Below, in pieces: positions 9,148 through 38,888 of a stretch of 64,000 bases of DNA (position 1 is its first letter; each line of letters opens with the position of its first letter). A program made the translations under genes and the position numbers. The notes beneath the pieces were generated by a model. The model made no database searches. It was not told the origin of the DNA and saw nothing but the letters and a program-made list of their open reading frames with translations. The stretch is from Bacillota bacterium (GTDB taxonomy: Bacteria; Bacillota; Dethiobacteria; DTU022), in assembly GCA_051748565.1 (NCBI GenBank), contig JBNJHN010000003.1:9596-73595 (forward strand). The letters run 5' to 3'.

Positions 9148-9179
9148 AAGATTATGATAAAGGTGGGGATTATAAAATC

Positions 9180-10331: not shown

Positions 10332-10400
10332 GGTGCGAAAGATTAAATGTACTGCAATAGAATAGCGGGTTTGATATAAAACCTGATGAGGTGATAGAAA

Positions 10401-13400
10401 GTGGAAAATAAATTGGAAATAAATAGCGGGCAACTTGTCAGAAACCTTGCAGGCAGTAATTTTGGAGATGTAATGGTTGTAGGTGGAGGGGTCAGCGGCA
10501 TCCAGTCATCCTTAGATCTTGCTGCTGCCGGTTTTAAGGTTTATCTTGTTGACAGCGCCCCTGCTATTGGCGGCCATATGGCCCAGCTGGATAAGACCTT
10601 TCCGACCAATGATTGCTCTATGTGAATACTCTCACCCAAACTGGTCGAGGTCGACCGGAATACCAATATTGAGGTCCTTTCCTATACTGAAGTGGATAGT
10701 GTGGAAGGCGAAGCGGGGAACTTTAAAGTAACCCTGAGGAAAAAACCCAGGTATGTATTAGAAGACAAGTGCACCGGCTGCACTGTCTGCGTTGAGTATT
10801 GTCCTGTAAAGTACCCTGATAAATTTAATCAGGATATATCGAAGAATAAAGCGATTCATATATACTATTCTCAGGCAATCCCCCTGATCACCTATATAGA
10901 TGAAAGCTGCATTTACCTGAAAGAGAAAAAGTGTCGCATCTGTGAGGCAGTATGTAAAAACGAGGCAATAGATTTTAATCAGACCGAAGAGAAGGTGGAA
11001 ATAAAAGTCGGGGCTGTAGTTCTGGCTCCGGGTTATGAACCATTTGATCCGGGCATAAGAGAGGACTATGGCTACGGTAAGTTCGAGAATGTGATAACCA
11101 GCATGGATTATGAACGGTTGACGGATTCCACGGGTCCTTATGAAGGCCAGGTCCTGCGCCCTTCCGATATGAAGCATCCCCATAAAGTAGCCTGGATCCA
11201 GTGTGTCGGTTCCAGGCAGGTTAACCCACCGGGCGCGAAAAGCTATTGTTCCTCGGTCTGCTGCACCTATACGCAGAAACAGGTAATATTAACAAAAGAA
11301 CATGACCCTGAATCTGAATGTGTCGTATTCCATAATGACATTCGATCCTACGGCAAAGATTTCGAGCGATTTTATAAAAGGGCAGAGGATCTGCCCGGGG
11401 TTCAATTTATCAGAAGCTATCCGTCGGTGGTAAAGGAAGATCCGGAAACCAGGAGTGTTACGATAAAATATGCAACCAATGATGACGGTGTGAAGGAAGA
11501 AGAATTTGACATGGTTGTATTATCGGTCGGGTTAAATCCACCCGCTGATTTTGAGAAACTGGCTGATAAGTTTGGTATTGAATTAAATGATCATGGCTTC
11601 TGCAAAACTAATCCTGTAAATACAATGCAGACTTCCCGCCCGGGATTATTTATCAGCGGCGCTTTCCAGGGTCCGTTAGATATCCCCGAATCTGTTGTAA
11701 CTGCGAGCGGCGCAGGGTCTCAGTGTGGCGAGCTTCTTAATTACAGGAGAGGGGATCTCTCCAAAGAAAGGGTATATCCTCCGGAAAGGGATGTTTCTTC
11801 AGAAGAACCCAGAATCGGCGTTTTTGTATGTCACTGTGGAGCGAATATCGGCAGGGTGGTTGATGTTCCTTCCAATGTTGAATATTCCTTAACCCTGCCC
11901 AACGTTGTCTATGCCCAGGAACAGCTTTTTTCATGTGCAACTAATTGTGCCGAAGAAATTACTGAGAAGATAAAAGAGAAAGAGCTAAACCGCGTAATCG
12001 TTGCCGCCTGTTCTCCGAGGACACTTGAAATGTTATTCCGGGATACACTTCGGGAGGCGGGGCTGAATCAATACTACTATGAAATGGCCAATATCAGGGA
12101 ACATTGCTCCTGGGTTCACCCCAAAGAAAAAGATAAAGCTACTCAAAAATCCAAGGATATTATTCGAATGGCAGTAGCCCGTGCCCGCCACCTGGAGCCG
12201 TTAATGGAGATAGATCTGCCGGTTGATAAAAGGGCTCTGGTGGTTGGTGGAGGAATTGCCGGCATGACCTGTGCACTCTCTATTGCCGCTCAGGGGCATG
12301 AAGTGCACCTGGTGGAAAAGGATAAAAACCTGGGAGGAACAGCAAGGAAAATATATGATACCCTGGAAGGGCTTGATGTTCAGACCTATTTACGCGACAT
12401 GATCGGCAAAGTTTATCAAAACCCCCTGATCCATGTTTATACCGATGCTGCAATCAAACAGAACACAGGGTATATTGGAAATTTTATTACCAGGGTGGAG
12501 ATTGATGGAAGAATAGCAGAAATTAAGCATGGAGCAACTGTGATTGCCACGGGTGCTGATGTTTATACACCCAGCGAATACCTTTATGGTAAAGATGACA
12601 GGGTTCTGACCCATCTCGAGTTGGAAGAAAAGATTGTTGAAGAAGATGAAAAAGTTATTAATGCTGAAAACCTGGTTATGATTCAGTGCGTGGGTTGCAG
12701 AAATGAAGACAGGGATTATTGTAGTCGAATCTGCTGTAACGAATCCGTAAAAAACGCCCTGAAGCTAAAAGAGAAAAACCCGCAGATGGATATCTATATT
12801 CTCTTCAGGGACATGAGAACCTATGGTTATAATGAAGATTTTTACAGGGCTGCGGCGGATAAAGATATCAAATTTATTCGTTACGAACCTGAAGAAGAAC
12901 CACAGATTGAAGCTGCTGAGGGAGAAAACGGGCCTGTTTTAAGGGTTACCCTGCCCGATTATGTTTTAGAGAAAAAACTTGAAATAGATGCTGATATTAT
13001 TGCACTGGCTGCTGCTGTTATTCCTTCTGCAGGGGCTAAAGAAATAGAAAGCTTATTCAAGGTTGGCTTGAACCAGGATGGTTTCTTTAAAGAGGCCCAT
13101 GTTAAATTAAGGCCGGTTGAATTTGCTGCAGACGGTGTTTATCTTTGTGGCTTGGCACACTATCCAAAGCTGATTTCAGAGACGGTCAGCCAGGCTTATG
13201 GTGCCGCGGGCCGGGTTTTAACCCTTCTTTCAAAAGATATCGTGACCGCTTCCGGCTCTATATGTGAGGTTGAAGAAGAAAAGTGTGTTTCCTGTGGAGC
13301 ATGTATTGCAGCCTGTACCTACGGTGCCATAGAATTCCGGGAAACAGAAATGGGTATTAAAGCTTTTGTCAATCCTGTTCTTTGTAAAGGTGACGGAGTC

Positions 13401-13526
13401 TGCAATGCAGTTTGCCCGACAGGGGCCATACAACTTAAGCACTTTACCGACAAAGAACTCTTGAGTCAAATCGATGCTGCAATACCGGAAGAAGAAGTCA
13501 TAAAGAAAATTGAAGCGCTGGTTTAG
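10401..13526 (+). CDS. bamE: HdrA-like FAD/FeS flavoprotein, BamE-like, with in-frame UGA (selenocysteine) at 10623-10625
   Basis: The track ORFs 10401-10625 and 10692-13526 are in the same frame and separated only by TGA. The reading is ...[23 protein letters not shown]..., which puts the UGA at the conserved HdrA Cys. Also present are an N-terminal FAD motif [10 protein letters not shown], a second GGGIAG motif, and several CxxCxxCxxxCP ferredoxin motifs. Confidence 0.8.
10641..10658 (+). other. Candidate bacterial SECIS hairpin 15 nt downstream of the bamE UGA
   Basis: ctGGTCGaggtCGACCgg forms a 5-7 bp stem with a small G-containing loop at the spacing expected for SelB-dependent recoding. 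Confidence 0.4.
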
Positions 13527-13671
13527 AACTTTTGGCAATACAAAATGTTTAGTTACTCAATTTAATATAAATCAAAATAAAATTTCTATTTCACCATAGC
13601 AAGGGAAATGAGTCTTTGGAAGTTTTTAAAAAATATATTTAAACGTATTAGAAACACAGGAGGTGTGGCGA

Positions 13672-14439
13672 ATGAGTACAGAAATGACTTTTAAACCAAG
13701 CATTATTGGTTTTGTATGTCAGTGGTGAGGATATGGAGCTGCGGATCTGGCTGGAGTTTCCAGACTACAATATACAACTGAAATCAGGCTTATTCGCGTT
13801 ATGTGCACCGGTAGAATCGACCTCGCACATATAATTAGGGCTTTCTCAAATGGGATAGATGGTGTTTTTATTGGTGGTTGTCGTTTAAATGAATGTAATT
13901 ATATTACTCACGGAAATTTTCATGCACTAAATATTGTGCTTCTTTGTAAGAAAATGATGGAATACATCGGTCTGAATCCCGAACGTTTGAGGATTGAGTT
14001 TATGTCATCCGGGGAGGGGAATCTTTTTGCCGAAGTTGTCGATGATTTTGTAGAGACAGTCAGGGAGACAGGCCCTCTTGGAAAAAGTGAGGGAATTGAT
14101 GAAACTGGATTAAAAGTAAATCTTAAAGCTATAACCAGCTTAATCCCCTATATCAGGCTGGTGGAAAGTGAAAGGCTAAGAGGGCACTTTGGAACATTAG
14201 CAGAGTTCAGGGACTTTTATTCCAGCGAAGAATTTGAAAGGCTCTTCCAGGAGCTGATCGCAGATAAACTGGCAATCAGCCAAATTATGATGCTCCTGCG
14301 GGAAAAACCCCTGTCTACGGGAGAAATCTCTGAGATACTGGGTCTTTCCCCGTCTGAAATATCAAAACACCTGAATAGTTCAGCAAAGCTTGGCCTGGTC
14401 AGGTATGAGGAAAATGAGAAGCGCTTTGCTTCTGTCTGA
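13672..14439 (+). CDS. bamF: MvhD/FlpD-like (methyl-viologen-reducing hydrogenase delta subunit family) protein, BamF-like, with in-frame UGA (selenocysteine) at 13726-13728
   Basis: The ATG at 13672 follows AGGAGGTG. Translation [53 protein letters not shown] places the UGA at the second Cys of the conserved CxWC..GADLAG MvhD motif. It is in frame with the track ORF 13801-14439. Confidence 0.75.
13746..13764 (+). other. Candidate SECIS hairpin about 18 nt downstream of the bamF UGA
   Basis: tCTGGAgttTCCAGa forms a 5-bp stem with a 3-nt loop. An alternative pairing is tctgg/ccaga with a 9-nt loop. Confidence 0.35.
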
Positions 14440-14487
14440 TACTAATCAGCAATCAGCATGGTGAAGGGGGATCGCGGGGCAGAGGCC

Positions 14488-14940
14488 ATGGATAATACCA
14501 GAATTGATCAAATCGTTGAAAAATATGACTGTGAAGCCAGTTCGCTCATCCAGGTATTATTGGAAATTCAGAGTGAAAACCGCTGGCTTCCAAAGCAGGT
14601 ATTGGAGAGGATTAGCGAAAGGCTAGAGGTGCCTTTGGCCAGAATACAGCACATTGCTACTTTTTATAAGGCATTTAGTTTAGTTCCGAAGGGCCGTCAT
14701 GAAATACATATTTGCATGGGTACCGCCTGTCATGTCCGTGGTGCGCAACTTGTCCTCGACAAAGTTCAAGACCTGACCGGTATTAACCCTGGCGAAACAG
14801 ACCTGGATCTCAAATTCAGCCTGGAGACGGTTAACTGTCTTGGTTGTTGTGCTTTAGGCCCGGTGATGGAAATTAATGGGCAAATTCACGGGAAGATATC
14901 ACCGGCCGAGACAGCAGATGCCCTAAAAAAATACGACTGA
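14488..14940 (+). CDS. bamG: NuoE-like 2Fe-2S thioredoxin-fold ferredoxin, BamG-like
   Basis: Cys pattern CMGTACHVRG ... CLGCCALGP is typical of NuoE/HoxE. The ATG at 14488 follows GGGGCAGAGG. The upstream in-frame ATG at 14458 has no RBS. Confidence 0.75.
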   Translation: MDNTRIDQIVEKYDCEASSLIQVLLEIQSENRWLPKQVLERISERLEVPLARIQHIATFYKAFSLVPKGRHEIHICMGTACHVRGAQLVLDKVQDLTGINPGETDLDLKFSLETVNCLGCCALGPVMEINGQIHGKISPAETADALKKYD

Positions 14941-14962
14941 GGGAAGATTGTGAGGGAAGATT

Positions 14963-16885
14963 ATGCCACGGATAAACTCACCTGCTGAACTGGAAGCAAT
15001 CAGAAAGGAATTACTGTCTCAACGAGATCCCGACAAACGGACTATTACGCTTTGCTCCGGTTCTGCCTGCCACGCAACGGGCAGCAGGTTGGTAGCTGAG
15101 AGTATCGAAGAAGAGATAAAAAAACAGGGTTTAACTGATCAAGTCGATATAAGGAAGACTGGTTGCCATGGTTTTTGTGAGAGAGGTCCGATCATAGTTA
15201 TCCACCCCGATGAAATATGCTACTTACAGATTAAGCCCGATGATGTTCCTGAAATTATTTCTGAGACGATCAAAGAAAATAGGATCATAGAGCGTTTACT
15301 TTATAAAGATCCCGCTACAGAGGAAGAGATAATTCATGAACATGAAATTCCCTTCTACAAGAACCAGAAAAGGCTTCTTTTCGGGGCCAATATTACAATA
15401 GATCCCAAAAGTATTGAAGACTACCTGGCTATTGGCGGTTATTCTGCGCTGGTTAAAGTTCTTTTTGAAATGAATCCTGAACAGGTTTTGGAAGAAATTA
15501 AAAAATCTAACCTGAGGGGCAGAGGTGGCGGCGGCTTTCCGGCAGGGATAAAATGGGAAGGCTCCCGTAATGCACCGGATGATAAGAAATATGTAATAGT
15601 AAATGCGGACGAAGGTGACCCCGGAGCCTACATGGATAGAAGTTTACTCGAAGGCAATCCTCATTCAGTTCTTGAGGGGCTGGCGATTGGAGCTTATACC
15701 ATTGGCGCAGAGGAGGGTTATATTTACGTTCGGCAGGAATACCCGCTGGCAGTAGAAAATATTGGTATTGCGATCAGCCAGGCTGAGGAATATGGATTCC
15801 TGGGGGATAATATTCTCGGCTCAGGCTTTAATTTCAAAGTTATTGTGCACCAGGGGGCAGGCGCGTTTGTCTGCGGCGAGTCTAGCGCTTTAATGACGGC
15901 TTTGGAAGGCAGGGCAGGTGAACCAAGGCCGAAGTATATCCGTTCAAACATCAAGGGCCTATGGGAAAAACCTACTGTTTTGAATAATGTTGAAACCTGG
16001 GCCAATGTTCCATTAATTATCAATAACGGTGCCGATTGGTTTACACAATATGGAACGGAAAAAAGCAAGGGTACAAAGATTTTTTCATTGGTAGGCAAAA
16101 TAAACAATACCGGTCTTGTAGAAGTAGCGATGGGTATGACCCTGCGAGATATTATTTTCAAAATAGGTGGCGGAATCCCCGGAGACAAGAAGTTTAAAGC
16201 AGTACAGACTGGCGGGCCGTCCGGCGGCTGCCTGCCAGCAGATTTATTAGATTTGGAAGTAGGTTTTGATGAGCTTACCCAGGCCGGCTCGATGATGGGT
16301 TCCGGGGGTATGATTGTCATGGATGAAGATACCTGCATGGTTGATGTGGCCAGGTATTTCCTTGATTTTCTCGCTGATGAATCGTGCGGTAAATGTGTCC
16401 CCTGCCGCGAAGGTGTCAAACAGATGCTGAACATTTTGACTAATATTACCCGGGGTAAGGGTAAGGAGGGTGATATTGAGCTTTTGGAGGAGCTGGCGGA
16501 GGTGGCCAGAGAGGGAGCACTCTGTGCTTTGGGTCAGACTGCGCCAAATCCGTTTATAAGTACATTAAAGTATTTTAAAGATGAGTATGAAGCACATATC
16601 AATGAAAAGAAGTGCCCGGCACTATATTGCAAAGAGCTTATTGACTACTATATTGATCCGGAAAAATGCCGGGCCTGTATGATTTGTCTCAAACAGTGTC
16701 CCGCAGATGCAATTATAGGGGAAAAGAAAAAGATCCATATAATAGACCAGGAGAAATGCACGAAGTGCAATACTTGTTTTGAGGTTTGTCCACCCCGTTT
16801 TAATGCGGTGAAGAAAATATCCGGTGAACCTGTCCCGCCTCCAATTTCCGAAGAAGAAAGAGTTATCACCAGGGGGAATAATTAA
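14963..16885 (+). CDS. bamH: NuoF-like NAD(P)H-binding FMN/4Fe-4S flavoprotein with extra N-terminal thioredoxin-like and C-terminal 2x[4Fe-4S] domains, BamH-like
   Basis: 640 aa. Contains the GRGGGGFPAGIKW FMN/NADH motif, the SLBB domain, CGKCVPCREG, and the C-terminal CRACMICLKQCP and CTKCNTCFEVCP motifs. Confidence 0.85.
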   Translation: MPRINSPAELEAIRKELLSQRDPDKRTITLCSGSACHATGSRLVAESIEEEIKKQGLTDQVDIRKTGCHGFCERGPIIVIHPDEICYLQIKPDDVPEIISETIKENRIIERLLYKDPATEEEIIHEHEIPFYKNQKRLLFGANITIDPKSIEDYLAIGGYSALVKVLFEMNPEQVLEEIKKSNLRGRGGGGFPAGIKWEGSRNAPDDKKYVIVNADEGDPGAYMDRSLLEGNPHSVLEGLAIGAYTIGAEEGYIYVRQEYPLAVENIGIAISQAEEYGFLGDNILGSGFNFKVIVHQGAGAFVCGESSALMTALEGRAGEPRPKYIRSNIKGLWEKPTVLNNVETWANVPLIINNGADWFTQYGTEKSKGTKIFSLVGKINNTGLVEVAMGMTLRDIIFKIGGGIPGDKKFKAVQTGGPSGGCLPADLLDLEVGFDELTQAGSMMGSGGMIVMDEDTCMVDVARYFLDFLADESCGKCVPCREGVKQMLNILTNITRGKGKEGDIELLEELAEVAREGALCALGQTAPNPFISTLKYFKDEYEAHINEKKCPALYCKELIDYYIDPEKCRACMICLKQCPADAIIGEKKKIHIIDQEKCTKCNTCFEVCPPRFNAVKKISGEPVPPPISEEERVITRGNN

Positions 16886-16887
16886 CA

Positions 16888-17499
16888 ATGAGTAAAATTT
16901 TATTGACTATTGATGGCAAAGAGGTTGAAGCAAATGATGATATGACTATATTGGAAGCGGCACAAAGTATAGGTATAGTTATACCTACACTTTGTCACCA
17001 CGAGAAGTTAGAACCTTATGGGGGGTGTCGGGTTTGCACAGTTGAGGTAGAATCAAATGGCAGGACTAAGCTGGTTGCAGCCTGTGTTTATCCGGCAGAG
17101 CGTAATTTAACTGTTATAACCAGGTCCGAAAAGATAGACAGAATTCGCAAAATGATCTTACAGCTATTGCTTTCTCATGCCCCGGATTCCGAGCAGCTGC
17201 AGGATTTGGCCAAGGAGTATGGCGCAGATAGTAATCGCTTTGAAAAAGAGGCTTCATTTTGCATACATTGTGGTTTATGTGTAAGGTACTGCAACGAAAT
17301 AAAAAAGAAGGATGCTGTCGGATTTATCAACAGAGGTGCCAGAAGAGAGATAAACTTTATCCCGGAGGTTGCCTCCAAAGAATGCTGGCATTGCAAAGAA
17401 TGTTTCCCACTCTGTCCCACAGCGGCACTTCAGGCAGCTTATGTTTTCACTGAAGCCCTTGTGGCTTCTAAAGCTCCTTTTGAAACTGAATCTGATTGA
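16888..17499 (+). CDS. bamI: NuoG N-terminal-like 2Fe-2S/4Fe-4S ferredoxin, BamI-like
   Basis: 203 aa. A 2Fe-2S fold (CHHEKLEPYGGCRVCTVEV) is followed by CIHCGLCVRYCN and CWHCKECFPLCP. Confidence 0.7.
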   Translation: MSKILLTIDGKEVEANDDMTILEAAQSIGIVIPTLCHHEKLEPYGGCRVCTVEVESNGRTKLVAACVYPAERNLTVITRSEKIDRIRKMILQLLLSHAPDSEQLQDLAKEYGADSNRFEKEASFCIHCGLCVRYCNEIKKKDAVGFINRGARREINFIPEVASKECWHCKECFPLCPTAALQAAYVFTEALVASKAPFETESD

Positions 17500-17568
17500 T
17501 GAAGCTTCAAGCTGCCCCGACTAATCCTGCACGATCTTCAGAATGGTATTCCTGATTTTTTGCAGTTA

Positions 17569-19479
17569 TTATTCTTTGAAAGCAATTTCAATTATATAAA
17601 CCCCTGAGGAAAATTTCTTTTCCACCACCGAGCCGGTTTTCTCCAATAAATGCAAAACATGTTTATTGTCGGGCAGTATTTCAGCTTTAAAGCCGACCAG
17701 ACCTTGTTTTTTTGCAATATAAGCCAGGTAAGAAAGTAGTTTAGTGCCTAAACCTTTTTGATGGTAATCGTCTCTGACGACCAAGGCAACCTGGGCAGTG
17801 AGAGTGCCTTCAATTACTGCAAATTGACCAACCCCGATCACTACTTCAGAGTCACCGTCCTCAATAGTCGCCAGGATAACCATTTCCTTTGTATAATCAA
17901 TTACGACAAAAATGTCCTGCAGCATTTCATGGGGCATATCTTTCCTTCGTGAAAGAAAGCGGTTATATTTTGTTTCATCTGAAAGTTTATAAAAGAAGTC
18001 TTTTAAAAGGGGCTCATCACTTATCTTAACCGGTCGCAGGCGAAATTCCAGCCCTGATTTTGTTGCCTTGTGCGTCTCAAGTTCAGCAGGGTATTCTCCT
18101 TTTTCTCCGGGCATAAAAGCCTGGTCCTGATAAATAAGAGATGCCTTCTTTGCTTCTTCAATCAGCCATGGTTGGAAATCAGGATGGGCGATAGAAATCA
18201 AGGCCATTGCTCTTTCCCTGATATTTTTACCATGCAGATATGCTATCCCGAATTCTGTAACCACGTAATGAATATCACCGCGGGTTAGTGTTACACCGGC
18301 GCCTTCTTTAAGAAAAGGGACGATTCTGGATATTTTTCCGCCATCAGTAGTTGAAGGCAAGGTAAGAATGGTTTTGCCACCCGGTGCCAGAACCGCACCA
18401 CGCATGAAATCTGCCTGGCCGCCGATTCCGCTGAAAAAAAATCTGCCGAGAGATTCTGCCGTAGCCTGCCCGGTTAAATCTATTTCCAGTGCGGTATTAA
18501 TTGCCACCATGTTTTTATTCATAGAAATTGTGATGGGACTGTTTGTATAGTCAATCTGCTTAAATTCTATACTCGGATTATCATCAAGGAATCGATATGT
18601 CGCCTTACTCCCCATGCAAAAGGAGGCTACAGTTTTTCCCCGGTCGACAGTTTTTTTAGAGTTATTGACCACGCCTTTTTTCATAAGCTCCACGATTCCA
18701 TCACTGAGCAATTCCGTATGGACACCTAAATTATTTTTTGATTCAAGACTGTTAAGAATTGCATTCGGCAGGCTTCCGTAACCGACCTGAATAGTATTGC
18801 CATCTTCAATTATCCGTGAAGCAAACTGGCCAATTTTTTTAACAGCATCAGAAGGCGTATCGGGAGTTTTATATTCCAGTACGGGCTCGTCATAATGCAC
18901 CACGAAATCAACATCTTTGATTTTTAGGAATGTATCCCCATGAGTTCTCGGCATTTTAGAATTGAGCTGGGCAATTACCAGAGAGGCATTTTCAACTGCA
19001 GTCTTGGTAATATCAACACTGATCCCGAGGCTCAGGTATCCGTGCTTATCGGGAAGTGAGGTTTGGATAATGGCGACGTCGACAGGCACCAGCTTGCGCC
19101 GGAATAATTCCGGAATTCCGGAAGCGAATATGGGAGTATAATCAGCAACTCCTTTGTTCACTATCTCCCTGGTATTTTCTACAATGAAGAAAGAATTATG
19201 CCTGAAGTTTTTCCTGAATTTATGATCGGCATATGGTGCAACACCTAGAGTCCAGACATGTAAAATTTCAGTGTCAAAGAAAGCTTTCGGGTTAGATTCT
19301 ACGAACTTTATCAGAGCCTGAACCAGGTACTGGGGTTCGCCACAACCGGTACCGATGTAGATCCTGTCACCGGCGTGAATATGACTGAAAATAACTTCTT
19401 CCGTGTCAAATTTTTCAGGGTATTTTTCTTTTGATTTTTCCAAATGAGCTTTCCGTTGTTGAATGTTTTCCCGATTCAT
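17569..19479 (-). CDS. Acetyl-CoA hydrolase/transferase-family (4-hydroxybutyrate / succinyl-CoA:acid CoA-transferase type) protein fused to a C-terminal GNAT acyltransferase domain
   Basis: 636 aa. The N-terminal ~450 aa form a family-I CoA-transferase (AcetylCoA_hydro/transf). The C-terminal ~170 aa show the GNAT motif A region (VVRDDYHQKGLGTKLLSYL). Convergent with bamI. Confidence 0.75.
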   Translation of the reverse strand: MNRENIQQRKAHLEKSKEKYPEKFDTEEVIFSHIHAGDRIYIGTGCGEPQYLVQALIKFVESNPKAFFDTEILHVWTLGVAPYADHKFRKNFRHNSFFIVENTREIVNKGVADYTPIFASGIPELFRRKLVPVDVAIIQTSLPDKHGYLSLGISVDITKTAVENASLVIAQLNSKMPRTHGDTFLKIKDVDFVVHYDEPVLEYKTPDTPSDAVKKIGQFASRIIEDGNTIQVGYGSLPNAILNSLESKNNLGVHTELLSDGIVELMKKGVVNNSKKTVDRGKTVASFCMGSKATYRFLDDNPSIEFKQIDYTNSPITISMNKNMVAINTALEIDLTGQATAESLGRFFFSGIGGQADFMRGAVLAPGGKTILTLPSTTDGGKISRIVPFLKEGAGVTLTRGDIHYVVTEFGIAYLHGKNIRERAMALISIAHPDFQPWLIEEAKKASLIYQDQAFMPGEKGEYPAELETHKATKSGLEFRLRPVKISDEPLLKDFFYKLSDETKYNRFLSRRKDMPHEMLQDIFVVIDYTKEMVILATIEDGDSEVVIGVGQFAVIEGTLTAQVALVVRDDYHQKGLGTKLLSYLAYIAKKQGLVGFKAEILPDNKHVLHLLEKTGSVVEKKFSSGVYIIEIAFKE

Positions 19480-19669
19480 TATTTCTCATTCCCTTCATTG
19501 ATTGCATGAATAATTGTTAACCAGGCAACCACTTTTATTCTATCACAAGCTAACCTTAATCATAAAACACAATTACCGATTCCGATGGCAAGCCAATAGA
19601 GGGGTTTTCAAAAATGCTGATGATCAAGTATACTGTTCCCATAGTAGATTTAGGCAAGGAGGAAAGTTT

Positions 19670-20110: not shown

Positions 20111-20656
20111 TTGCCAGTGATCATGGAATTGAATGGGAAAAAACCGCAGGTAGCGGCGGGTGCCTTTATCGCGCCGACTGCAGCGTTGATTGGTGATGTG
20201 GTGGTAGAGGAGGGAGCCAGTATCTGGTTTGGGGCAGTTCTGAGGGGGGATTTTGGGCGGATATTTGTAGGGAAAAATACCAGTATTCAGGACAATGTAG
20301 TTGTGCACACAATGGTTGATGGAGAGACGATAATCGGCGATGACGTCACTGTGGCTCACGGTTCAGTATTGCATAACTGCACGGTTCGCCATGGTGCAAT
20401 CATCGGGTTGAACGCAGTGCTGCTGGATTTTTGTGAAATCGGTGAGAAAGCAATGGTTGCAGCAGGCAGTGTGGTAACTGCCAATATGAAGATACCTGCA
20501 AAACATCTGGCCGCAGGTGCCCCGGCGATAATAAAAAAAAAGATTGCCGGCGCATCCTTAATTTGGGTAGACTCCAGCGCTGCTCATTACAGGGAGATGG
20601 CTAATAGTTACCTGGAGCAGGGGATTGGGCGGGCTGACAGTTTGCTTTCTGATTGA
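20111..20656 (+). CDS. Gamma-class carbonic anhydrase / PaaY-like hexapeptide-repeat protein
   Basis: Left-handed beta-helix hexapeptide repeats with the His ligands of gamma-CA-like proteins. 181 aa. Confidence 0.7.
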   Translation: MPVIMELNGKKPQVAAGAFIAPTAALIGDVVVEEGASIWFGAVLRGDFGRIFVGKNTSIQDNVVVHTMVDGETIIGDDVTVAHGSVLHNCTVRHGAIIGLNAVLLDFCEIGEKAMVAAGSVVTANMKIPAKHLAAGAPAIIKKKIAGASLIWVDSSAAHYREMANSYLEQGIGRADSLLSD

Positions 20657-20895
20657 TAATAAGCTTTTTTCGGATATTTATTATAATTTTATTATTTAAA
20701 GAGAATATAACTTTTTCAAAATGGTTCAACCTTATTACATATGATATTATAAAACGTAGGTTAAATAGATATCTAAAATGGATAACCGACCAGAATCAAT
20801 TGCATTTGGAGAGGTTTTTCAGCTGCTTTGACGAATTAACGATCGCAAAACGGCAAGTAAACCTTTTCAATATATATGAAAGGAAGTGTTTAAAT

Positions 20896-21318
20896 ATGGA
20901 CAAACTGATGCTTGCAACAGATGGTTCAAAGCACTCAATGAAAACGATTGATCAGTCAATTAAACTGGCTTCTAAACTGGGAGCCGAGGTAACAATCCTG
21001 TATATTATTGAAGGTAATCCCCAGATCGGTTATGATCTGTTCGCCGCCTATAAAAAAACCGAAGCCGAGTTAGAGAATACTGCGAAAAAAGTTTTGGAGA
21101 AATCGGCACAGCCCTTTATAGACAAAGGGATCTCGGTTAAAACAAGACTTGAAAAGGGACACCCGGCAGATATTATATGTGAAATCGCTGAGAAAGAAAA
21201 ATTTAATTACGTTATTCTTGGAAGCAGGGGCCTGGGCGGAATTAAAGAAATGCTGCTTGGGAGTGTCAGTAATGCCGTCGCCAATTGCATCAAAACAAAC
21301 ATAATAATTATTAAATAA
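20896..21318 (+). CDS. Universal stress protein (UspA family)
   Basis: MDKLMLATDGSKHS ... VILGSRGLGGIKEMLLGSVSN is the canonical Usp ATP-binding C-terminus. The ATG at 20896 is in frame with the track ORF and has an upstream AAGGAAG. Confidence 0.75.
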   Translation: MDKLMLATDGSKHSMKTIDQSIKLASKLGAEVTILYIIEGNPQIGYDLFAAYKKTEAELENTAKKVLEKSAQPFIDKGISVKTRLEKGHPADIICEIAEKEKFNYVILGSRGLGGIKEMLLGSVSNAVANCIKTNIIIIK

Positions 21319-21390
21319 TTCTTTAAAGCTTTATCCTGGCTCTCAAAATTTCGGCGCAAAAGTACCAGTTTAGCTCCGCTCACAAAAATT

Positions 21391-21439
21391 ATTACCAGGT
21401 CCAAATAATCTTCGATAGCTTCGATTCGGACCTGGTAAT
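21391..21439. terminator. Perfect 12-bp inverted repeat (ATTACCAGGTCC-N25-GGACCTGGTAAT) between convergent genes; bidirectional terminator candidate
   Basis: Seen directly. It is flanked by an A-run upstream and a T-run downstream. Confidence 0.45.
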
Positions 21440-21464
21440 TTTAATATAATTAAGAAGCTGCCTC

Positions 21465-22661
21465 TTAAACAGAAACTTTCACAATCAGGGCTGCTCCGGT
21501 ATCGCCGGCAGCACAACCGGAGAACATACCGTAACCCCCGCCTAAAAGAACAAGTTCTTCAATCATTTCAACAATACAGCGACCGACGGTCGGTCCTTGG
21601 GGATGGCCAAAGATTATCGGGCTTCCATAATTGTTGAAGCTCATCACGTCGATTCCCAATTCGTTGGCCATATAGATATCATTGGCGGCAAATGGATTAT
21701 GGGTTTTTATGGTTTTAATATCTTTTATATCTAAACCGGCTTTTTCCAAAGCCATCCTGGCTGCAGGAACAGGGGCCATGGACATGTGTGCTTTCGGGGC
21801 CCGGCTGTAACCGTAGGAAATTACCTGGATCTCAATATTTTTGTCTGCGCTGTATTCCGAGGCTTTCTCTTTGCTGGTAACTATGATGCCGCAGTTACCA
21901 TCTGCCGGGTGTGTTTGTGAGCCAAAAGTGTGCACTCCGTCGGGGATTACAGGTTTGAGCCTGGCCAACCCTTCTTTTGTGGTTGGAGTAATACCTTCAT
22001 CAGTTTCAAGAGTCCCCATTTCTTTTCTGCTTATCTTGAACTCAACTGGGAACATGTAGCTCTTTTGGAATTCGCGGTCGTTTTTAACCCCATCCATATA
22101 CTGCTCGTAACGTTTTAGGGCCACCTCGTCACACTGCTCACGGCTGATGTTGCCGGCCTTCTTTACCACATTCTCAGCCGTCTGAATCATTGCGACTCCT
22201 CCCCAGGGATCGCTGCCGAAATGATCCATAACCCAATCTTCAGAGATAACCTGTCCTCCGGGGCCGGCTGGATTGGGCCAAATCGTGTGTGGGCCGTTAG
22301 AGGTTCGGTCTGTCATCAGGCAAAAAGCATTTTCATAATTGCCGGCTTCAATACTTATGGCAGCCATATTAACGCAGGTGGTTGAAGTTGAGCATGCCTG
22401 AGATATATGAACTGCCGCTATCTTCTCAGCTCCCATCATGGCAGCTGCCCATGGTGATGCATAAAAGGTGCAGGGTTGCCCGATTGTCTTTCCAAACACC
22501 AGGTAATCAAAATCCCCTGGGTCGATTTTTTTCTCAGCAAGCCATCTTTTTGCCGTTGCTGCCCCCAATTCGATAGAATTTTCATTGGCCAGGCTGCCCT
22601 GCCATCTGGAAAAAGGTGAACTGAAATAACCACGGTACGGGATGAATGCTTTTGTGTACAT
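21465..22661 (-). CDS. Thiolase-family protein (acetyl-CoA acyltransferase-like, divergent)
   Basis: 398 aa. Thiolase N- and C-terminal domains with an active-site Cys region (SQACSTS) and a C-terminal GCAAGDTGAA-like motif. Confidence 0.7.
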   Translation of the reverse strand: MYTKAFIPYRGYFSSPFSRWQGSLANENSIELGAATAKRWLAEKKIDPGDFDYLVFGKTIGQPCTFYASPWAAAMMGAEKIAAVHISQACSTSTTCVNMAAISIEAGNYENAFCLMTDRTSNGPHTIWPNPAGPGGQVISEDWVMDHFGSDPWGGVAMIQTAENVVKKAGNISREQCDEVALKRYEQYMDGVKNDREFQKSYMFPVEFKISRKEMGTLETDEGITPTTKEGLARLKPVIPDGVHTFGSQTHPADGNCGIIVTSKEKASEYSADKNIEIQVISYGYSRAPKAHMSMAPVPAARMALEKAGLDIKDIKTIKTHNPFAANDIYMANELGIDVMSFNNYGSPIIFGHPQGPTVGRCIVEMIEELVLLGGGYGMFSGCAAGDTGAALIVKVSV

Positions 22662-23152
22662 CTTCTTGCCTCCTGTTATTATTTATAAGGGCTTGACAAT
22701 ATTTTTCGACATTACCCGAATTATTCCTGCCTGGCTTAAAAAGAACTGTTTTTGAATAGGCCGTTTTCATCAAGTAAGGGTATATATGCTTCATTTTAAT
22801 TTATTTTAAAAGAATTATATAAAGTTAATTTTAATTATGCATAATTACTTATTATATTTAAATTTATAGTAATATTGTGCAATAAATATGAACGTTCTAT
22901 CGAAATGATGAAAAAATACAAAAGTGGACTTGATTAGAAAAATAATTTGTGTTAAACTGAATTAATTTATTATTGCAATCTTTCCTGTTTTTCCAAAATA
23001 TATTTGATTTAAAAATGTTAGTTTGAAGGGTATTTACTCAATTACTTAGGAGAAAGAAGGTGTTATAAAAAAATATTGATGGAAGCAAGGATAGGAAATG
23101 CAAGCTGTCTCAGGTAGTACTAAACTTACATTTGTAGAAGGAGGGTCAAGTA

Positions 23153-24283
23153 ATGAAAACAAAGCTTTTATTGCTGTTGCTTATATTTGCGTTAGTTCTG
23201 GTGCCAGTAATTAGCGGTTGTGCACCGGCGGATGAGCCGGCACCGGATCCGGAACCGGATCCGAACGGAGAGCCGGATGAAGAGCCGGAAGAGGATGCCC
23301 AGAGTTTCACCCTGCAATTTGCCACTTTTTGGCCAGGTGTAGACTTTCAGGTAGAAGAAGGGCACAAGGGTTGGGCTAAAGAAATCTCAGACCGTGTAGC
23401 TGCTGAGACTCCGCACTCAGTTGAATTTGAATGGCATTACGCCGGTGCTCTCCTTGCGGCGACAGAAATTTATACCGGGGTGGCACAAGGGGCTGCAGAC
23501 CTGGGGTCAACCTGTCCAATTTATACTGCAGGTGTATTCCCGGTATCGCAGGCGTTCGAGCTGCCTGGCTTTAACAATGACAATGCCCTGGTTGCCTCGG
23601 TGACTATACATGAGGCCTGGAAACAGTCCGAATTATTGCAGGAAGAATTCAAAGATGTAAAGATCATGCACTTTTGGGCAACCGGTCCCGGTGATTTTAT
23701 GACCAACACCCGGATTGAAACTATGGAAGACCTCGCCGGGCTGGAACTAAGAGCTCTTGCCGGTTCAGGTTCTGCACTTGCTCTGATGGGTGGAGTACCT
23801 GTAGCTTTCCCCATGGGTCAATCTTATGAAAATATCGAAACCGGGGTTGTTGATGGTCTGATAGCCCCAACAGATACGTTACAAGGTTTCAGGCTTGCTG
23901 AGGTGACCCAGTATATTACGAAGACCCCATTCATCTACAATATCCTTTTTATGAAAGTGATGAATTGGGACACCTGGAATTCCTTACCACCTTCGGTACA
24001 GCAAATCTTTGACGAGGTAAATGAGAAGTACGTCATTGAGTATGGCAAATTAAGAACTGACTACACCCTGATCGGTGAGCAATTTGGGGTTGAGGAGTTC
24101 GGGATGGAAGTAATCGAGCTTGCCCCGGATGAGTATCAGCGCTGGGTTGAGACTTCCATGCCAGTTGTGGATCAGTGGATCGAAGCAACCGATGACTTGG
24201 GGTTGCCCGGCCAGGAAATTGTGGACATGGTCCGCGAATTTGACGCCCGATACTCGGCAGAGCACGGCAGCTACGGCAATTAA
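23153..24283 (+). CDS. TRAP transporter substrate-binding lipoprotein (DctP family)
   Basis: Lipobox LVPVISGC followed by a Pro/Glu/Asp-rich linker (PADEPAPDPEPDPNGEPDEEPEED), then the DctP fold. Confidence 0.8.
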   Translation: MKTKLLLLLLIFALVLVPVISGCAPADEPAPDPEPDPNGEPDEEPEEDAQSFTLQFATFWPGVDFQVEEGHKGWAKEISDRVAAETPHSVEFEWHYAGALLAATEIYTGVAQGAADLGSTCPIYTAGVFPVSQAFELPGFNNDNALVASVTIHEAWKQSELLQEEFKDVKIMHFWATGPGDFMTNTRIETMEDLAGLELRALAGSGSALALMGGVPVAFPMGQSYENIETGVVDGLIAPTDTLQGFRLAEVTQYITKTPFIYNILFMKVMNWDTWNSLPPSVQQIFDEVNEKYVIEYGKLRTDYTLIGEQFGVEEFGMEVIELAPDEYQRWVETSMPVVDQWIEATDDLGLPGQEIVDMVREFDARYSAEHGSYGN

Positions 24284-24396
24284 GTTCGCTGTTCAAAAAT
24301 CAAATCGTTTGATTTTGCTTAAGATATAAGTCAAATTGGTGGAGGGGGCTTCCACCATCCCGGAGTATTTTTCCGGCGAGGTGGGCGCCCTCTCTG

Positions 24397-24945
24397 ATGA
24401 AAACAGAAGACACGAATACGGCAATGACAGGGGGTCGGATTTACTTGGTAAAATTATTTGAACGATTTGTGCAGGGCCTGACCTGGCGTACAGCGCAGGT
24501 AGCCCAAATTGCCTTATTTATTTCAATGGCTATAATTATGACCAATATACTTATGCGGATTCCATGGCAGCCTTTACCCGGCACAGTGGAGATCGTGGAG
24601 ATGACTGGAGCCGTGCTTTTAGCATTAGGTGTGGCTTATACAGCAATTATGAAAGGCCATATCATGGTCGGGGTGCTGGTAGAGCGTTTTTCAGCACGCG
24701 TTCAGGCCGCCATAGAAATATTTGTAAGCATTTTATCACTTATTTTTACCTATCTTCTTGCCCGCGAGATCTTAATTTTTGCTATCAGCAGTATGCAGAG
24801 GGGCTACACGACCGGACATCTTTATGTGCCCATAGCACCTGCGATCTTTGTTGTTGCTTTTGGATTTATTATGCTGGCACTCGTGTTAATCCTGGATCTG
24901 CTAAAGGCAGTAATGCTCATTACGAAAAGGAGTGAAAGCGGATGA
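24397..24945 (+). CDS. TRAP transporter small permease (DctQ family)
   Basis: 182 aa with 4 predicted TM helices. Overlaps the dctM start by 4 nt. Confidence 0.7.
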   Translation: MKTEDTNTAMTGGRIYLVKLFERFVQGLTWRTAQVAQIALFISMAIIMTNILMRIPWQPLPGTVEIVEMTGAVLLALGVAYTAIMKGHIMVGVLVERFSARVQAAIEIFVSILSLIFTYLLAREILIFAISSMQRGYTTGHLYVPIAPAIFVVAFGFIMLALVLILDLLKAVMLITKRSESG

Positions 24946-26249
24946 CCCCAATTCAAATTGGCCTGCTATCTATTGTAATAATATTCATCCTTCTCTTTTT
25001 ACGAATGCCTGTGGCTTATGTAATGCTCGTTGTGGGGATGTCCGGTTTTGCAATTATTAGAACACCAGCGGCGATGTTCTCAATTTCTGCGCAGACTATA
25101 TATAATACTTTTGCCTCTTATTCCCTTATTGTTGTACCCTTGTTTGTCTGGATGGGTTTTATAGCTTTCTATTCCGGTATAAGTTCGCGGATTTATGATG
25201 CCGCCTATAAGGTTATGGGCAGTATGAAAGCGGGCCTTGCCCTGGCTACTATTGGTGCCTGTACTGCATTTGGCGCCATCTGCGGCTCAACCACAGCAAC
25301 CGCTGCAACAATGAGCGCTGTAGCCCTTCCGGAAATGAAAAAATATAATTACAACCGCTCACTATCAACAGCCACGGTTGCTTCGGCATCAATTCTGGGT
25401 GTTATGATCCCACCCAGCGTAATTTTTATTCTTTACGGAATTTCTGCCCAGCAATCGATCAGACAACTATTTTTGGCCGGAATTTTCCCCGGAATCTTAT
25501 TAATGCTTCTCTTCATGCTGGCTGCTTACCTCCAGGCTTTACATAATCCAAAACTGGCTCCTCCGGGACCGCAGGTGCCGTGGGCTGAGAAGATAAGGGC
25601 GATGATGAGTGGAGGAGTTGAGGTTCTTATTATCTTTATTGCAGTAATGGGGGGGCTTTTTGCCGGAATATTTACCCCTTCTGAGGCCGGGGCGGTAGGT
25701 GCCTTTGCCACACTTGTCGTTGCCCTGGTCAGGCGCCAGCTGAAATGGCAGGGTTTTCTTGATTCTCTGAGAGACTCGGTGCGTGTATCGGCGATGATCA
25801 TGTTTTTGGTTGCTGCAGCGGCAATCTATGGCCGTTTTTTGGCTGTGACAGGATTACCTGGAGGTCTTGCTCAATGGGCTGTAGCGCTACCTTTACCCCC
25901 TGTAGCCATTATGGCGATCATATTGTTCATTTATCTGATTCTCGGATTTTTTGTAGATGCCCTGGCGCTGATTTTACTGACGGTGCCAATTTTTTATCCG
26001 GTTGCAGTCGAGCTAGGTTTTGATCCGATCTGGTTTGGAGTTATAATTGTATTGGCTCTTGGGATGGGTTGTATAACACCACCGGTAGGGGCCAATGTTT
26101 ATGTTGTAGCCGGTGTGGATCGGGAAACCCCGGTGATGGAAATTTTCCGGGGCGTGGGATGGTATTTATTAGCTATTATTCTTTGCACCGTTATCCTGAT
26201 AATATTCCCGGAAATTGCAACTTTCTTACCCCGAATGGTATTTAATTGA
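24942..26249 (+). CDS. TRAP transporter large permease (DctM family)
   Basis: 435 aa polytopic membrane protein, typical DctM. Confidence 0.85.
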   Translation: MTPIQIGLLSIVIIFILLFLRMPVAYVMLVVGMSGFAIIRTPAAMFSISAQTIYNTFASYSLIVVPLFVWMGFIAFYSGISSRIYDAAYKVMGSMKAGLALATIGACTAFGAICGSTTATAATMSAVALPEMKKYNYNRSLSTATVASASILGVMIPPSVIFILYGISAQQSIRQLFLAGIFPGILLMLLFMLAAYLQALHNPKLAPPGPQVPWAEKIRAMMSGGVEVLIIFIAVMGGLFAGIFTPSEAGAVGAFATLVVALVRRQLKWQGFLDSLRDSVRVSAMIMFLVAAAAIYGRFLAVTGLPGGLAQWAVALPLPPVAIMAIILFIYLILGFFVDALALILLTVPIFYPVAVELGFDPIWFGVIIVLALGMGCITPPVGANVYVVAGVDRETPVMEIFRGVGWYLLAIILCTVILIIFPEIATFLPRMVFN

Positions 26250-26336
26250 GAATAGGAAATCTATAAAACAGAGTTGCTATAAGATTTATAATTAATAAAG
26301 CAAATTAAATTTAATTTATATGATTAAAAATATTCA

Positions 26337-26368
26337 CAAGCCGGTTTAAATCCCGGCTTGTTTTTTTC
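26337..26368 (+). terminator. Rho-independent terminator after the TRAP operon
   Basis: CAAGCCGG-tttaaatc-CCGGCTTG followed by TTTTTTT. Confidence 0.6.
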
Positions 26369-26382
26369 TATCCGCCAAAAAC

Positions 26383-27099
26383 CTAATGGCCAATTTTGTC
26401 GTTGTCGGCATTTTCAATTATAAATAAGCTATCTGCCCTGTTCCGGCTAAGTTTCATAGCCAGGGATATAGCCTGGGTTCTGTTTTTCACCTGTAGTTTC
26501 TGATAAATGTTGCGCAGGTGGGTCTTTACCGTGTCGACTGCCAGATTTGTGGCTGAGGAGATTTCTTTATTTGTTAAACCCTTAACCAGCTGCCTGAGGA
26601 TTTCCTGCTCTCTTGGTGTGAGTTCTACCCGCTTTTCTTCTTTTTCCAGAGGCTTTATTTCGGTAAGTTTTTTACTCAGGCGGGTATAATCGTTTACTAT
26701 CTGGCGAAAAACAGATTGATCGATAATGGTTTCTCCATTATGAACTCTTTTAATTGTATCGATCAGGTTTTGTCTGCTAACATGTTTGAGAATATAGCCG
26801 GATGCCCCGCTTTGAAGGGCCAGACGGATTGATTCCGTATCTTCAAAGATAGTTAAAAAAATTATTTTTATCTCCGGTTTTTGGGCCAGGATTTGCTTCG
26901 CTGTTTCTATACCGTTTACGCCTTCCATTTTAATATCCATGAGAATGACATCGGGTGCAACCTCATGCGCTTTAGCTATAGCTTCTTCACTGTTTCCGCA
27001 GCTGCCGGCGATGGAGATACCTTCACAGTTTTCAAGCATATTCGACAATCCTTCCCGGACCATGGGGTGATCATCAACAATGAGGATTTTAATAGTCAA
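26383..27099 (-). CDS. LuxR/NarL-family response regulator (REC + HTH)
   Basis: ILIVDDHPMVREGL ... the conserved D in DIKMEG ... and a C-terminal LTPREQEILRQLVKGLTNKEIS LuxR HTH. The TTG start at 27099 lies 8 nt after GGAAGGAG. The track ORF extends to 27195 with no RBS. Confidence 0.75.
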   Translation of the reverse strand: MTIKILIVDDHPMVREGLSNMLENCEGISIAGSCGNSEEAIAKAHEVAPDVILMDIKMEGVNGIETAKQILAQKPEIKIIFLTIFEDTESIRLALQSGASGYILKHVSRQNLIDTIKRVHNGETIIDQSVFRQIVNDYTRLSKKLTEIKPLEKEEKRVELTPREQEILRQLVKGLTNKEISSATNLAVDTVKTHLRNIYQKLQVKNRTQAISLAMKLSRNRADSLFIIENADNDKIGH

Positions 27100-27134
27100 T
27101 TCAAGAACTCCTTCCCGAGCTTCCCGAGTGAAAC

Positions 27135-34092: not shown

Positions 34093-34110
34093 ATTAAAAG
34101 GAGATTTCTT

Positions 34111-36449: not shown

Positions 36450-36475
36450 TATTGCATACACGAGGAGGATTAACT

Positions 36476-38224: not shown

Positions 38225-38268
38225 GCCAATGCAAACTTTAATTAAAAATCCGAGAAGGAGGCATCGAT

Positions 38269-38853: not shown

Positions 38854-38888
38854 AGAATATAAAGTCATTTTATTAAGGAGGGAAAACG

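Follow-up and report, generated by a model that had tools for sequence, protein, structure and literature searches.

A widespread fusion of a 4-hydroxybutyrate-type CoA-transferase with a Pat-type GNAT domain, and a variant with an altered GNAT active site beside a benzoyl-CoA reductase operon

The gene considered here lies in a stretch of 64,000 nucleotides (the window) from a Bacillota bacterium of the Dethiobacteria (assembly GCA_051748565.1, contig JBNJHN010000003.1, positions 9,596 to 73,595 of the forward strand), where it is convergent with a set of class II benzoyl-CoA reductase (bam) genes and encodes a single protein in which a CoA-transferase is joined to a GNAT acyltransferase domain. 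The fusion gene is read on the minus strand, and residue and nucleotide positions are given in the numbering of the window. Its overall layout is as follows.

17569..19479 (minus strand): whole fusion gene, 636 aa, with start codon ATG at 19477-19479 and stop codon TAA at 17569-17571; a single uninterrupted open reading frame (ORF)
18133..19449 (minus strand): class-I (AcetylCoA_hydro / 4-hydroxybutyrate-type) CoA-transferase domain, residues 11-449, from Pfam PF02550 and PF13336 and from PDB 9vag and 3gk7
17587..18108 (minus strand): Pat-type GNAT domain, residues 458-631, from Pfam and PDB matches

A first-pass annotation of the stretch had proposed that a CoA-transferase and a GNAT domain are carried by this one protein, and a Pfam domain search places both sets of domains above their cut-offs. 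AcetylCoA_hydro (PF02550) covers residues 11-199 (E 1.1e-46; 159.8 bits against a cut-off of 24) and AcetylCoA_hyd_C (PF13336) residues 290-443 (E 3.8e-63; 212.5 bits against 23.7), with Acetyltransf_1 on residues 528-616 (35.1 bits against 20.7) and Acetyltransf_3 on residues 480-616 (33 bits against 25.4). By model scores and motifs the protein is a member of both the class-I AcetylCoA_hydro-type CoA-transferases and the GNAT superfamily, and its score against every equivalog-level model of NCBIfam falls below the cut-off.

The fusion is genuine and is found in many other organisms. An identical (100%) protein is recorded from an NCBI 'Bacillota bacterium' metagenome-assembled genome (MAG; P0001), and within a collection of 5.8 billion proteins all of the top 120 matches (120/120) carry both domain sets, at lengths of 620-660 aa and identities of at least 65%. 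Their source labels include Bacillota, Dethiobacteria, Spirochaetota, Thermodesulfobacteriota, Nitrospirota, Planctomycetota and Bipolaricaulota, and their annotations say just 'GNAT family N-acetyltransferase' or 'acyl-CoA hydrolase/GNAT superfamily N-acetyltransferase'. In a collection holding one genome per species, relatives of the fusion are encoded in at least 589 species-representative genomes of bacteria and archaea; the best 80 of these at least 589 relatives are 62-77% identical over their full length and include archaeal proteins from Methanothrix, Thermoplasmata, Theionarchaea and an Iainarchaeum MAG. An intact full-length fusion ORF is present in 85/85 loci examined. When the GNAT domain alone is compared with 1.84 billion cluster representatives at 50% identity, the best 150 matches comprise 33 long proteins with the CoA-transferase+GNAT arrangement, 3-4 in which an ADP-forming acyl-CoA synthetase (ACD) is joined to a GNAT in the manner of Pat, and a remainder of short standalone GNATs or fragments. 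The CoA-transferase+GNAT combination is therefore the main multidomain architecture among the nearest relatives of this GNAT. The early description of the fusion as unusual does not hold as a statement of frequency, since it occurs in at least 589 species genomes and is the commonest long architecture near this GNAT domain.

No description of the CoA-transferase+GNAT architecture was found in the literature searched, and a 2021 review of bacterial lysine acetyltransferases recognises five architecture types, none of which has a CoA-transferase as partner. The fusion family thus appears to be real, widespread, generically annotated and uncharacterised. Two relatives of the GNAT domain, P0209 (960 aa) and P0235 (967 aa), carry an extra N-terminal region of about 335 aa with 4Fe-4S dicluster (Fer4) motifs, and could possibly represent a redox-sensing fusion of three parts; the idea that this extension is a fused DRTGG protein was rejected, the region being of the Fe-S (Fer4) type.

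The N-terminal part had been likened at the outset to 4-hydroxybutyrate CoA-transferases, and this agrees with the structural matches. Residues 20-449 align with solved 4-hydroxybutyrate CoA-transferases, best with 9vag (E about 2.8e-120 to 4.7e-120) and also with 3eh7, 2oas, 3gk7 (E 7.8e-103) and 3d3u, and across 430 residues it shares about 47% identity with active transferases. Three of its elements are central to what follows.

19411..19413 (minus strand): K23, an invariant lysine in the N-terminal tail, aligned with Lys6 of TtCoAT
18712..18720 (minus strand): H254-T255-E256, in which E256 is the predicted nucleophile that forms the CoA thioester, aligned with residue 238 of AbfT (3gk7)
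18406..18423 (minus strand): GGQADF motif, residues 353-358, a conserved active-site loop of CoA-transferases, placed by conservation

The column occupied by E256 holds Glu in 202/205 family sequences. In AbfT the equivalent E238 is reportedly the glutamate that forms the thioester with CoA. Loss of the catalytic glutamate had been named beforehand as grounds for abandoning the proposal, and the residue is present. The GGQADF loop is nearly invariant, with G353, G354 and F358 unchanged in 86 sequences, and K23 is found in 205/205 family sequences. In NCBIfam the model for butyryl-CoA:acetate CoA-transferase, TIGR03948, covers the whole of the domain (E 6.8e-85), although its 285.5 bits lie so far under the equivalog cut-off of 674.8 that substrate specificity is not transferable from it. 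From these motifs and alignments the domain is apparently catalytically competent and of the 4-hydroxybutyrate / short-chain-acid:acetyl-CoA type.

The C-terminal domain is Pat-like, as first proposed. Among solved structures residues 458-631 match only Pat-type GNAT domains, best those of Streptomyces lividans PatA (4nxy/4u5y, E 5e-17), then E. coli PatZ (9it0/9isq, E 9e-16) and mycobacterial Pat (4orf/4ava, E about 1e-10). The NCBIfam model for mycobacterial Pat, ActPatMycb56 (NF058543), is matched with E 3.7e-19 and 68.7 bits against a cut-off of 460, the GNAT part alone being aligned; there are also weak NCBIfam matches to the small-molecule GNATs ArsN1, AAC(6'), PseH and RimI (E 4e-4 to 5e-3). 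The elements of the active site are located as follows.

18076..18096 (minus strand): EYPAELE, residues 462-468, an N-terminal extension common to Pat GNAT domains, from alignments
17791..17793 (minus strand): Q563 (codon CAG), where Pat has its catalytic Glu (PatZ E809, S. lividans PatA E123), from alignment
17746..17763 (minus strand): GNAT motif A / P-loop, H573-Q-K-G576-L-G578, which maps to PatZ G822-G824

The extension corresponds to EYPAHWE in S. lividans PatA and to PYPHQLE in PatZ, and its Y463 and P464 are invariant. A 2025 cryo-EM paper on PatZ lists as key residues R754, F756, E809, I846, the P-loop glycines G822-G824 and K860, and a pairwise alignment of the GNAT domains carries these and N851 over to the fusion protein.

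PatZ R754: R507, invariant in the family
PatZ F756: L509
PatZ E809: Q563, the exception among the key residues
PatZ G822-G824 (P-loop): G576-G578
PatZ I846: E600, a residue type as in PatA E160
PatZ N851: N605, invariant in the family
PatZ K860: K614

R507, the equivalent of PatZ R754, sits at the lysine-entry hole. Motif A, the loop that binds the pyrophosphate of the acyl-CoA, is defined in the 2021 review as Arg/Gln-x-x-Gly-x-Gly/Ala. Loss of this acyl-CoA-binding motif was likewise named in advance as counting against the proposal; its G-x-G is intact (G576 and G578), although the first position is occupied by His (H573). Of the 205 aligned family members, 145 have Glu in column 563, 28 have Asp and 32 have Gln, and the 32 with Gln are exactly the window protein and the relatives that are at least 75% identical to it. 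The first position of motif A is Gln in 165/173 of the Glu/Asp-type members; within the Gln clade it is Gln in 11/32 and His in 21/32. Neither Q563 nor this His had been noted in the first-pass annotation.

The proteins of this Gln-563 clade come from soda-lake and similar sediments and are labelled as Bacillota or Syntrophomonadaceae MAGs, with one locus from a soda-lake sediment metagenome. Substitutions that are fixed in the clade and rare elsewhere number 10 in the 177-residue GNAT domain as against 5 in the 450-residue transferase. Those of the GNAT fall at or beside elements of the active site, namely L509 at the position of PatZ F756, and H560L and E563Q on the catalytic strand, with I577L in the P-loop, V601I beside the backbone position of E600, P607H and F612L as further changes; none of the five in the transferase lies at the nucleophile or the GGQxDF loop. 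Within the clade the ratio of non-synonymous to synonymous substitution rates (dN/dS, by the Nei-Gojobori method, for pairs with unsaturated dS) ranges over 0.047-0.089 in the GNAT and 0.029-0.055 in the transferase. On these values a decay of the GNAT domain was rejected, since they indicate strong purifying selection, under which the domain has been kept after the change and thus remodelled. A remodelled GNAT that lacks the catalytic Glu is plausible because, according to the 2021 review, the E809Q variant of SePat has no defect in vivo and the activity of PatZ E809A is rescued at basic pH; the 2025 cryo-EM paper reports markedly lower in vitro activity for PatZ E809A. From the pattern of substitutions we infer that the window copy is a lineage-specific derivative, a re-specialised variant of the family with a remodelled GNAT active site.

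The setting of the fusion gene in other genomes gives an indication of the metabolism to which the family belongs. For this purpose the ORFs lying up to four genes from the fusion were clustered across 82 non-redundant loci, and the order of downstream genes was counted in 69 informative loci with at least 2.2 kb of downstream sequence each. In 33/82 loci the next gene downstream, on the same strand, encodes an ACD of about 705 aa, which stands at position +1 in 30/69 informative loci, where its start usually overlaps the stop of the fusion by 4 nt; archaeal loci with this arrangement include L035, L050, L061, L080, L083 and L084. The fusion and the ACD are thus apparently tightly linked by translational coupling, as judged from the overlap. 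The ACD neighbours carry the Pfam domains CoA_binding, Succ_CoA_lig, Ligase_CoA_2 and ATP-grasp_5, have as best structural matches 8wzu (4-hydroxybutyrate-CoA ligase [ADP-forming], E 1.8e-146) and 4xyl (ACD), and as best NCBIfam models 4-hydroxybutyrate-CoA ligase and acetate-CoA ligase. A 'split Pat' operon, with the downstream ACD as a dead Pat-like domain, was considered and rejected, since the phospho-histidine motif AASHTGSLAG (SHTG) is retained in 33/35 ACD copies and the best matches are active ACDs.

At position +2, in 31 loci, there is an AAA_26+DRTGG protein of about 345 aa that corresponds to the N-terminal half of a type II phosphotransacetylase (Pta-N) and lacks its catalytic domain (NCBIfam PRK05632, positions 3-367 of 708). 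The resulting three-gene operon, fusion then ACD then AAA_26+DRTGG protein, is kept across bacteria and archaea (among L013-L084; for instance L074:2162-4276, L077:5246-6277, L080 and L035). Acs, an acetyl-CoA synthetase of the AMP-forming type, is found near the fusion in 11/82 loci and the SatP/YaaH acetate channel in 5, with the order Acs-SatP-fusion in several Actinomycetota and Dehalococcoidia loci. Acs together with a SatP/YaaH-type channel adjoins the fusion in L031, L052, L062 and L065, and Acs alone does so in L016, L018, L027, L029, L033, L039 and L047. The ACD, Pta-N-like, Acs and SatP neighbours, taken with 9VAG as the closest structure, therefore point to a family that operates at the acetyl-CoA/acetate, short-chain acyl-CoA node. 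The link to benzoate drawn in the first-pass annotation is not borne out at the level of the family, whose neighbours are of this acetate type and whose closest structure is a short-chain fatty acid:acetyl-CoA transferase.

The locus of the window copy is arranged differently, and was compared through the loci of close homologues (L001-L003, L086 and L087). Its main features are these.

6654..17499 (plus strand): set of bamB-to-bamI-like genes for class II benzoyl-CoA reductase, convergent with the fusion gene; same layout in L001-L003 and L087
19480..19669 (no strand): 190-bp divergent intergenic region, the presumed promoter region of the fusion and PaaI-like thioesterase genes; divergent layout kept in L001-L003, L086 and L087
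19670..20074 (plus strand): hotdog-fold (4HBT, PaaI-like) acyl-CoA thioesterase, 134 aa, the constant divergent neighbour in the Gln clade
20111..28865 (no single strand): hexapeptide protein, Usp, thiolase (minus), TRAP DctPQM transporter, response regulator (minus) and GAF/HisKA_3 kinase (minus); synteny with L001-L003, L086 and L087

The convergence with the bam operon, noted at first sight of the sequence, is as described: the bamI-like gene ends at 17499 and a 69-bp spacer (17500-17568) separates it from the fusion gene. A consensus scan found no terminator-like hairpin in this spacer, and a consensus scan for promoters around the fusion gene gave nothing convincing, its promoter-like matches being about twice the number expected from shuffled sequence. 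Convergence of the bam operon with the fusion gene is seen in the window, in L001-L003 and in L087, whereas unrelated genes take the operon's place in L086; since L086 does without it, the link to bam is looser than that to the divergent block of thioesterase, TRAP and two-component genes. The mechanically called ORF of the thioesterase, 19514-20074 on the plus strand, starts with TTG at 19514, and the likely true start is the ATG at 19670 behind an AAGGAGG ribosome-binding site, which gives 134 aa as in its relatives and leaves the 190-bp divergent region to be shared with the fusion gene. None of the Gln-clade loci examined (the window, L001-L003, L086 and L087) has the ACD or Pta-N partners, and the nearest Glu-type relatives (P0028 and P0038) lie in unrelated housekeeping contexts. 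There are three AMP-forming ligases in the window (38889-40454, 41807-43378 and 44548-45852), 19-26 kb from the fusion gene. A strict PX4GK motif is found in just one of them, and the window includes ligases that carry the A10 lysine; in the ligase at 41807-43378 the Lys of a PLTATGK motif near residue 511 is the candidate acylation site.

Two further observations concern the surroundings. Within the bam set the BamE/HdrA-like gene is split into the ORFs 10401-10625 and 10692-13526 (plus strand), with an in-frame TGA at 10623-10625 in the context NDCSM-TGA-ILSPK; a similar split, into ORFs of about 74-79 aa and about 910-941 aa, occurs in L001-L003 and L087, and because the in-frame TGA interrupts a motif the gene probably encodes selenocysteine. 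A second catabolic module at 33067-45852 comprises a D-2-hydroxyacid dehydrogenase, two HGD-D (2-hydroxyacyl-CoA dehydratase-like) subunits, an indolepyruvate/POR-type thiamine pyrophosphate (TPP)/ferredoxin oxidoreductase, an MFS transporter, two medium-chain-type AMP ligases and a PaaK-type phenylacetate-CoA ligase, and from its gene content looks like an aryl-pyruvate/aryl-lactate route.

Comparison with known systems helps to define what the fusion protein is and is not. The closest relationship of its GNAT is to the type I enzyme Pat/PatZ (YfiQ) and the type II enzyme PatA of S. lividans, with which it shares homology including the N-terminal YP..LE extension and the equivalents of R754, the P-loop, N851 and K860. 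In Pat, too, a large partner that binds acyl-CoA is joined to the GNAT; that partner is an NDP-forming acyl-CoA-synthetase-like domain which has lost its catalytic His, whereas in the fusion it is a CoA-transferase fold that retains its nucleophile. According to the 2021 review the synthetase-like domain of Pat types I and II is inactive, binds acetyl-CoA and is required for activity. The ACD of the fusion-family operons is by contrast a separate, active-looking protein, unlike the in-chain ACD-like domain of Pat, and the window copy has Gln at the position where Pat has its catalytic Glu. As the fusion protein has no in-chain NDP-forming acyl-CoA-synthetase-like domain, and the window copy has no catalytic Glu, it is not classed as a Pat. 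The order of the operons (GNAT end, then ACD) nevertheless mirrors the order of domains in type II PatA, the best structural match of the GNAT, which suggests an evolutionary link between the fusion-ACD operon and the Pat architecture.

Among solved structures the N-terminal domain is matched best by TtCoAT of Thermus thermophilus (TT_C1083, PDB 9VAG), a class-I transferase that shuttles CoA between acetyl-CoA and a variety of short-chain fatty acids. TtCoAT is the main cellular substrate of the GNAT acetyltransferase TT_C1711, which acetylates Lys5 (the main site) and Lys6 of its N-terminal tail with functional consequences. Lys6, next to Lys5, aligns with the invariant K23 of the fusion family, and by analogy with the tail of TtCoAT K23 is a candidate site of auto-acylation, to be taken as a lead. 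The Thermus acetyltransferase is a separate protein, whereas the fusion family has its GNAT in cis; TtCoAT is regulated also through an NAD+-sensing alanine-dehydrogenase-like pseudo-enzyme, whereas the accessory protein of the fusion-family operon is Pta-N-terminal-like. AbfT (3gk7) and the butyryl-CoA:acetate CoA-transferase of TIGR03948 have the same fold and active-site motifs as the fusion but, unlike it, no GNAT. A transferase whose product feeds a GNAT is represented in E. coli by YdiF and YiaC, which are two separate proteins of other subfamilies; YiaC is a writer of lysine lactylation, that is a GNAT lysine lactyl-transferase, and YdiF reportedly supplies it with lactyl-CoA. Finally, the succinyl-CoA:benzoate CoA-transferase Bct of Geobacter metallireducens (Gmet_2054) is used beside a ligase for the activation of benzoate in an organism with class II benzoyl-CoA reductase; compared by description, it resembles the fusion as a CoA-transferase of an obligate anaerobe with that reductase, and it is not known to have a GNAT domain.

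On this basis a working mechanism can be proposed. The transferase domain would exchange CoA between acetate, or another small acid, and an acyl-CoA, and would stand in for Pat's inactive ACD-like domain as the partner that binds acyl-CoA, oligomerises and gates the GNAT. The latter would then transfer the acyl group of an acyl-CoA to a partner's lysine, the candidates being an Acs-type AMP-forming ligase (the classical substrates of Pat), the co-translated ACD or, by analogy with TtCoAT, the protein's own K23 tail, so that flux through the acetyl-CoA/acetate node would be tied to the supply of acyl-CoA. In the genomes with the operon the transferase and ACD together may turn diverse acyl-CoAs into acid and ATP with acetate as carrier, and the GNAT may prevent futile cycling with Acs. 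In the lineage of the window, where the gene has lost its ACD and Pta-N partners and lies within an anaerobic aromatic/acyl-CoA catabolic island, the transferase could activate a carboxylate imported by the adjacent TRAP transporter in an ATP-independent manner, using acetyl-CoA or succinyl-CoA from neighbouring pathways, and the altered GNAT could either write a different acyl mark or act mainly as an acyl-CoA-responsive module. In its general form, that both domains are functional, that the protein works at an acyl-CoA node and that its output is protein acylation, this reading is one to which sequence and gene context lend an even chance of being right; in any specific target of the acylation there is much less confidence.

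Several observations weigh against this proposal. The catalytic Glu of Pat is absent from the window copy, and with Q563 together with a motif A that begins with His the GNAT may there be slow or non-catalytic. No ACD, DRTGG or Acs homologue is present in the 64-kb window, and 39/69 informative loci have no ACD partner, with the result that the acetate-node reading rests on a large minority of loci and on those with Acs and SatP. An AlphaFold2 model built from a 22-sequence alignment was poor, with a mean predicted local distance difference test score (pLDDT) of 65.7, a predicted template modelling score (pTM) of 0.55 and residues 329-462 below 50, so the way in which the two domains face each other is unreadable from it.

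The surroundings of the window copy invite a different explanation, in which the protein is a dedicated benzoate/aromatic acid:succinyl-CoA/acetyl-CoA CoA-transferase of the benzoyl-CoA pathway and its GNAT acylates and regulates the AMP-forming ligases of the island. In its favour, the fusion gene and bamB-I converge in the window, in L001-L003 and in L087, the genes that constantly adjoin it encode a TRAP transporter for carboxylates, a thiolase and a thioesterase like PaaI, the window holds three AMP-forming ligases, one with PX4GK, and the literature records that the benzoate-pathway enzymes of Syntrophus, including benzoate-CoA ligase, are heavily modified by acyl-lysine with no known writer. 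This explanation is nonetheless unlikely, for the context across the family is acetate/ACD/Acs and not aromatic, L086 keeps the fusion gene without adjacency to bam, the ligases are 19-26 kb away and the solved structure that matches best is that of a transferase for short-chain acids. Moreover, the clade-fixed changes of the transferase are just 5 and lie off the nucleophile and the GGQxDF loop, and they therefore give no sign of a re-tooled acid pocket. It is equally improbable that the GNAT of the Gln clade is a catalytically dead pseudo-enzyme which only binds acyl-CoA, as an allosteric or structural module, the protein being then a regulated CoA-transferase. Q563 in place of the Pat Glu in 32/32 clade members, a His-initial motif A in 21/32, the absence of the ACD/Pta-N partners and the reduced activity of PatZ E809A are all as that explanation would have it, but R507, the P-loop glycines and N605 are retained, SePat E809Q works in vivo and basic pH restores the activity of E809A. 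The dN/dS of the GNAT is also as low as that of the transferase domain, though a binding module would be conserved as well, and what a dead GNAT leaves unexplained is the clustering of the fixed changes round the active site. Because the clade-specific changes are fixed and clustered there, re-specialisation is favoured over drift.

Other alternatives can be set against the same evidence. If the transferase were a non-catalytic sensor of acyl-CoA, the protein would be a plain protein acetyltransferase, as in Pat types I and II, where the inactive acetyl-CoA-binding NDP-forming acyl-CoA-synthetase-like domain is needed for activity; yet the partner in Pat has lost its catalytic His, whereas here the nucleophile Glu is kept in 202/205 sequences, the GGQxDF loop is nearly invariant and identity to active transferases is about 47% over 430 residues, which makes this alternative a distant one. 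Still less probable is that the GNAT N-acylates a small molecule, such as an amino acid, a polyamine or an antibiotic-like compound, with acyl-CoA from the transferase: the NCBIfam matches to ArsN1, AAC(6'), PseH and RimI that would favour it (E 4e-4 to 5e-3) are far weaker than the Pat-type matches (E 1e-15 to 1e-17), which include the Pat N-terminal extension and R507, and no biosynthetic neighbours were seen. That two genes have been joined artificially, through assembly or a frameshift, has next to no probability and is taken as excluded, the architecture being intact in the window, in 85/85 independent loci from many assemblies and phyla and in 120/120 top matches. A more ambitious version of the preferred mechanism joins two statements: that CoA-transferase+GNAT proteins form a sixth and very widespread class of lysine acyltransferase, in which an active transferase in complex with the co-translated ACD makes or senses the acyl donor, and that the Gln-563 clade by bam is a re-tooled writer of non-acetyl marks (for example glutaryl, crotonyl or benzoyl) on enzymes of the benzoyl-CoA pathway. 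Drawn as it is from motifs and gene context, this conjunction is doubtful, and is put forward as speculation.

The results are relevant to protein acylation and to anaerobic energy metabolism, and the functional statements made here draw on sequence and context. In the best-understood lysine acetyltransferases, Pat/PatZ, an inactive acyl-CoA-synthetase-like domain serves as the acetyl-CoA sensor. What is new relative to the five recognised types is a Pat-like GNAT joined to an active-looking CoA-transferase, in hundreds of anaerobic bacterial and archaeal species and often co-translated with an active-looking ACD. If the general reading is true, it would add a new class to the architectures of lysine acetyltransferases, would hint at the origin of Pat, given the gene order of GNAT then ACD, and would mean that, in anaerobes limited for energy, protein acylation is tied to the substrate-level phosphorylation that takes place at the acetyl-CoA/acetate node. 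Should the more speculative sixth-class reading be true, the conversion of acyl-CoA to ATP would have its own post-translational feedback, and the missing enzymatic writer for the heavy acyl-proteomes of syntrophic aromatic degraders would be supplied. The window variant, for its part, represents a natural experiment on the 'catalytic' glutamate of Pat, the role of which is already disputed, and from its sequence and setting it may be regarded as a candidate regulator in anaerobic aromatic degradation.

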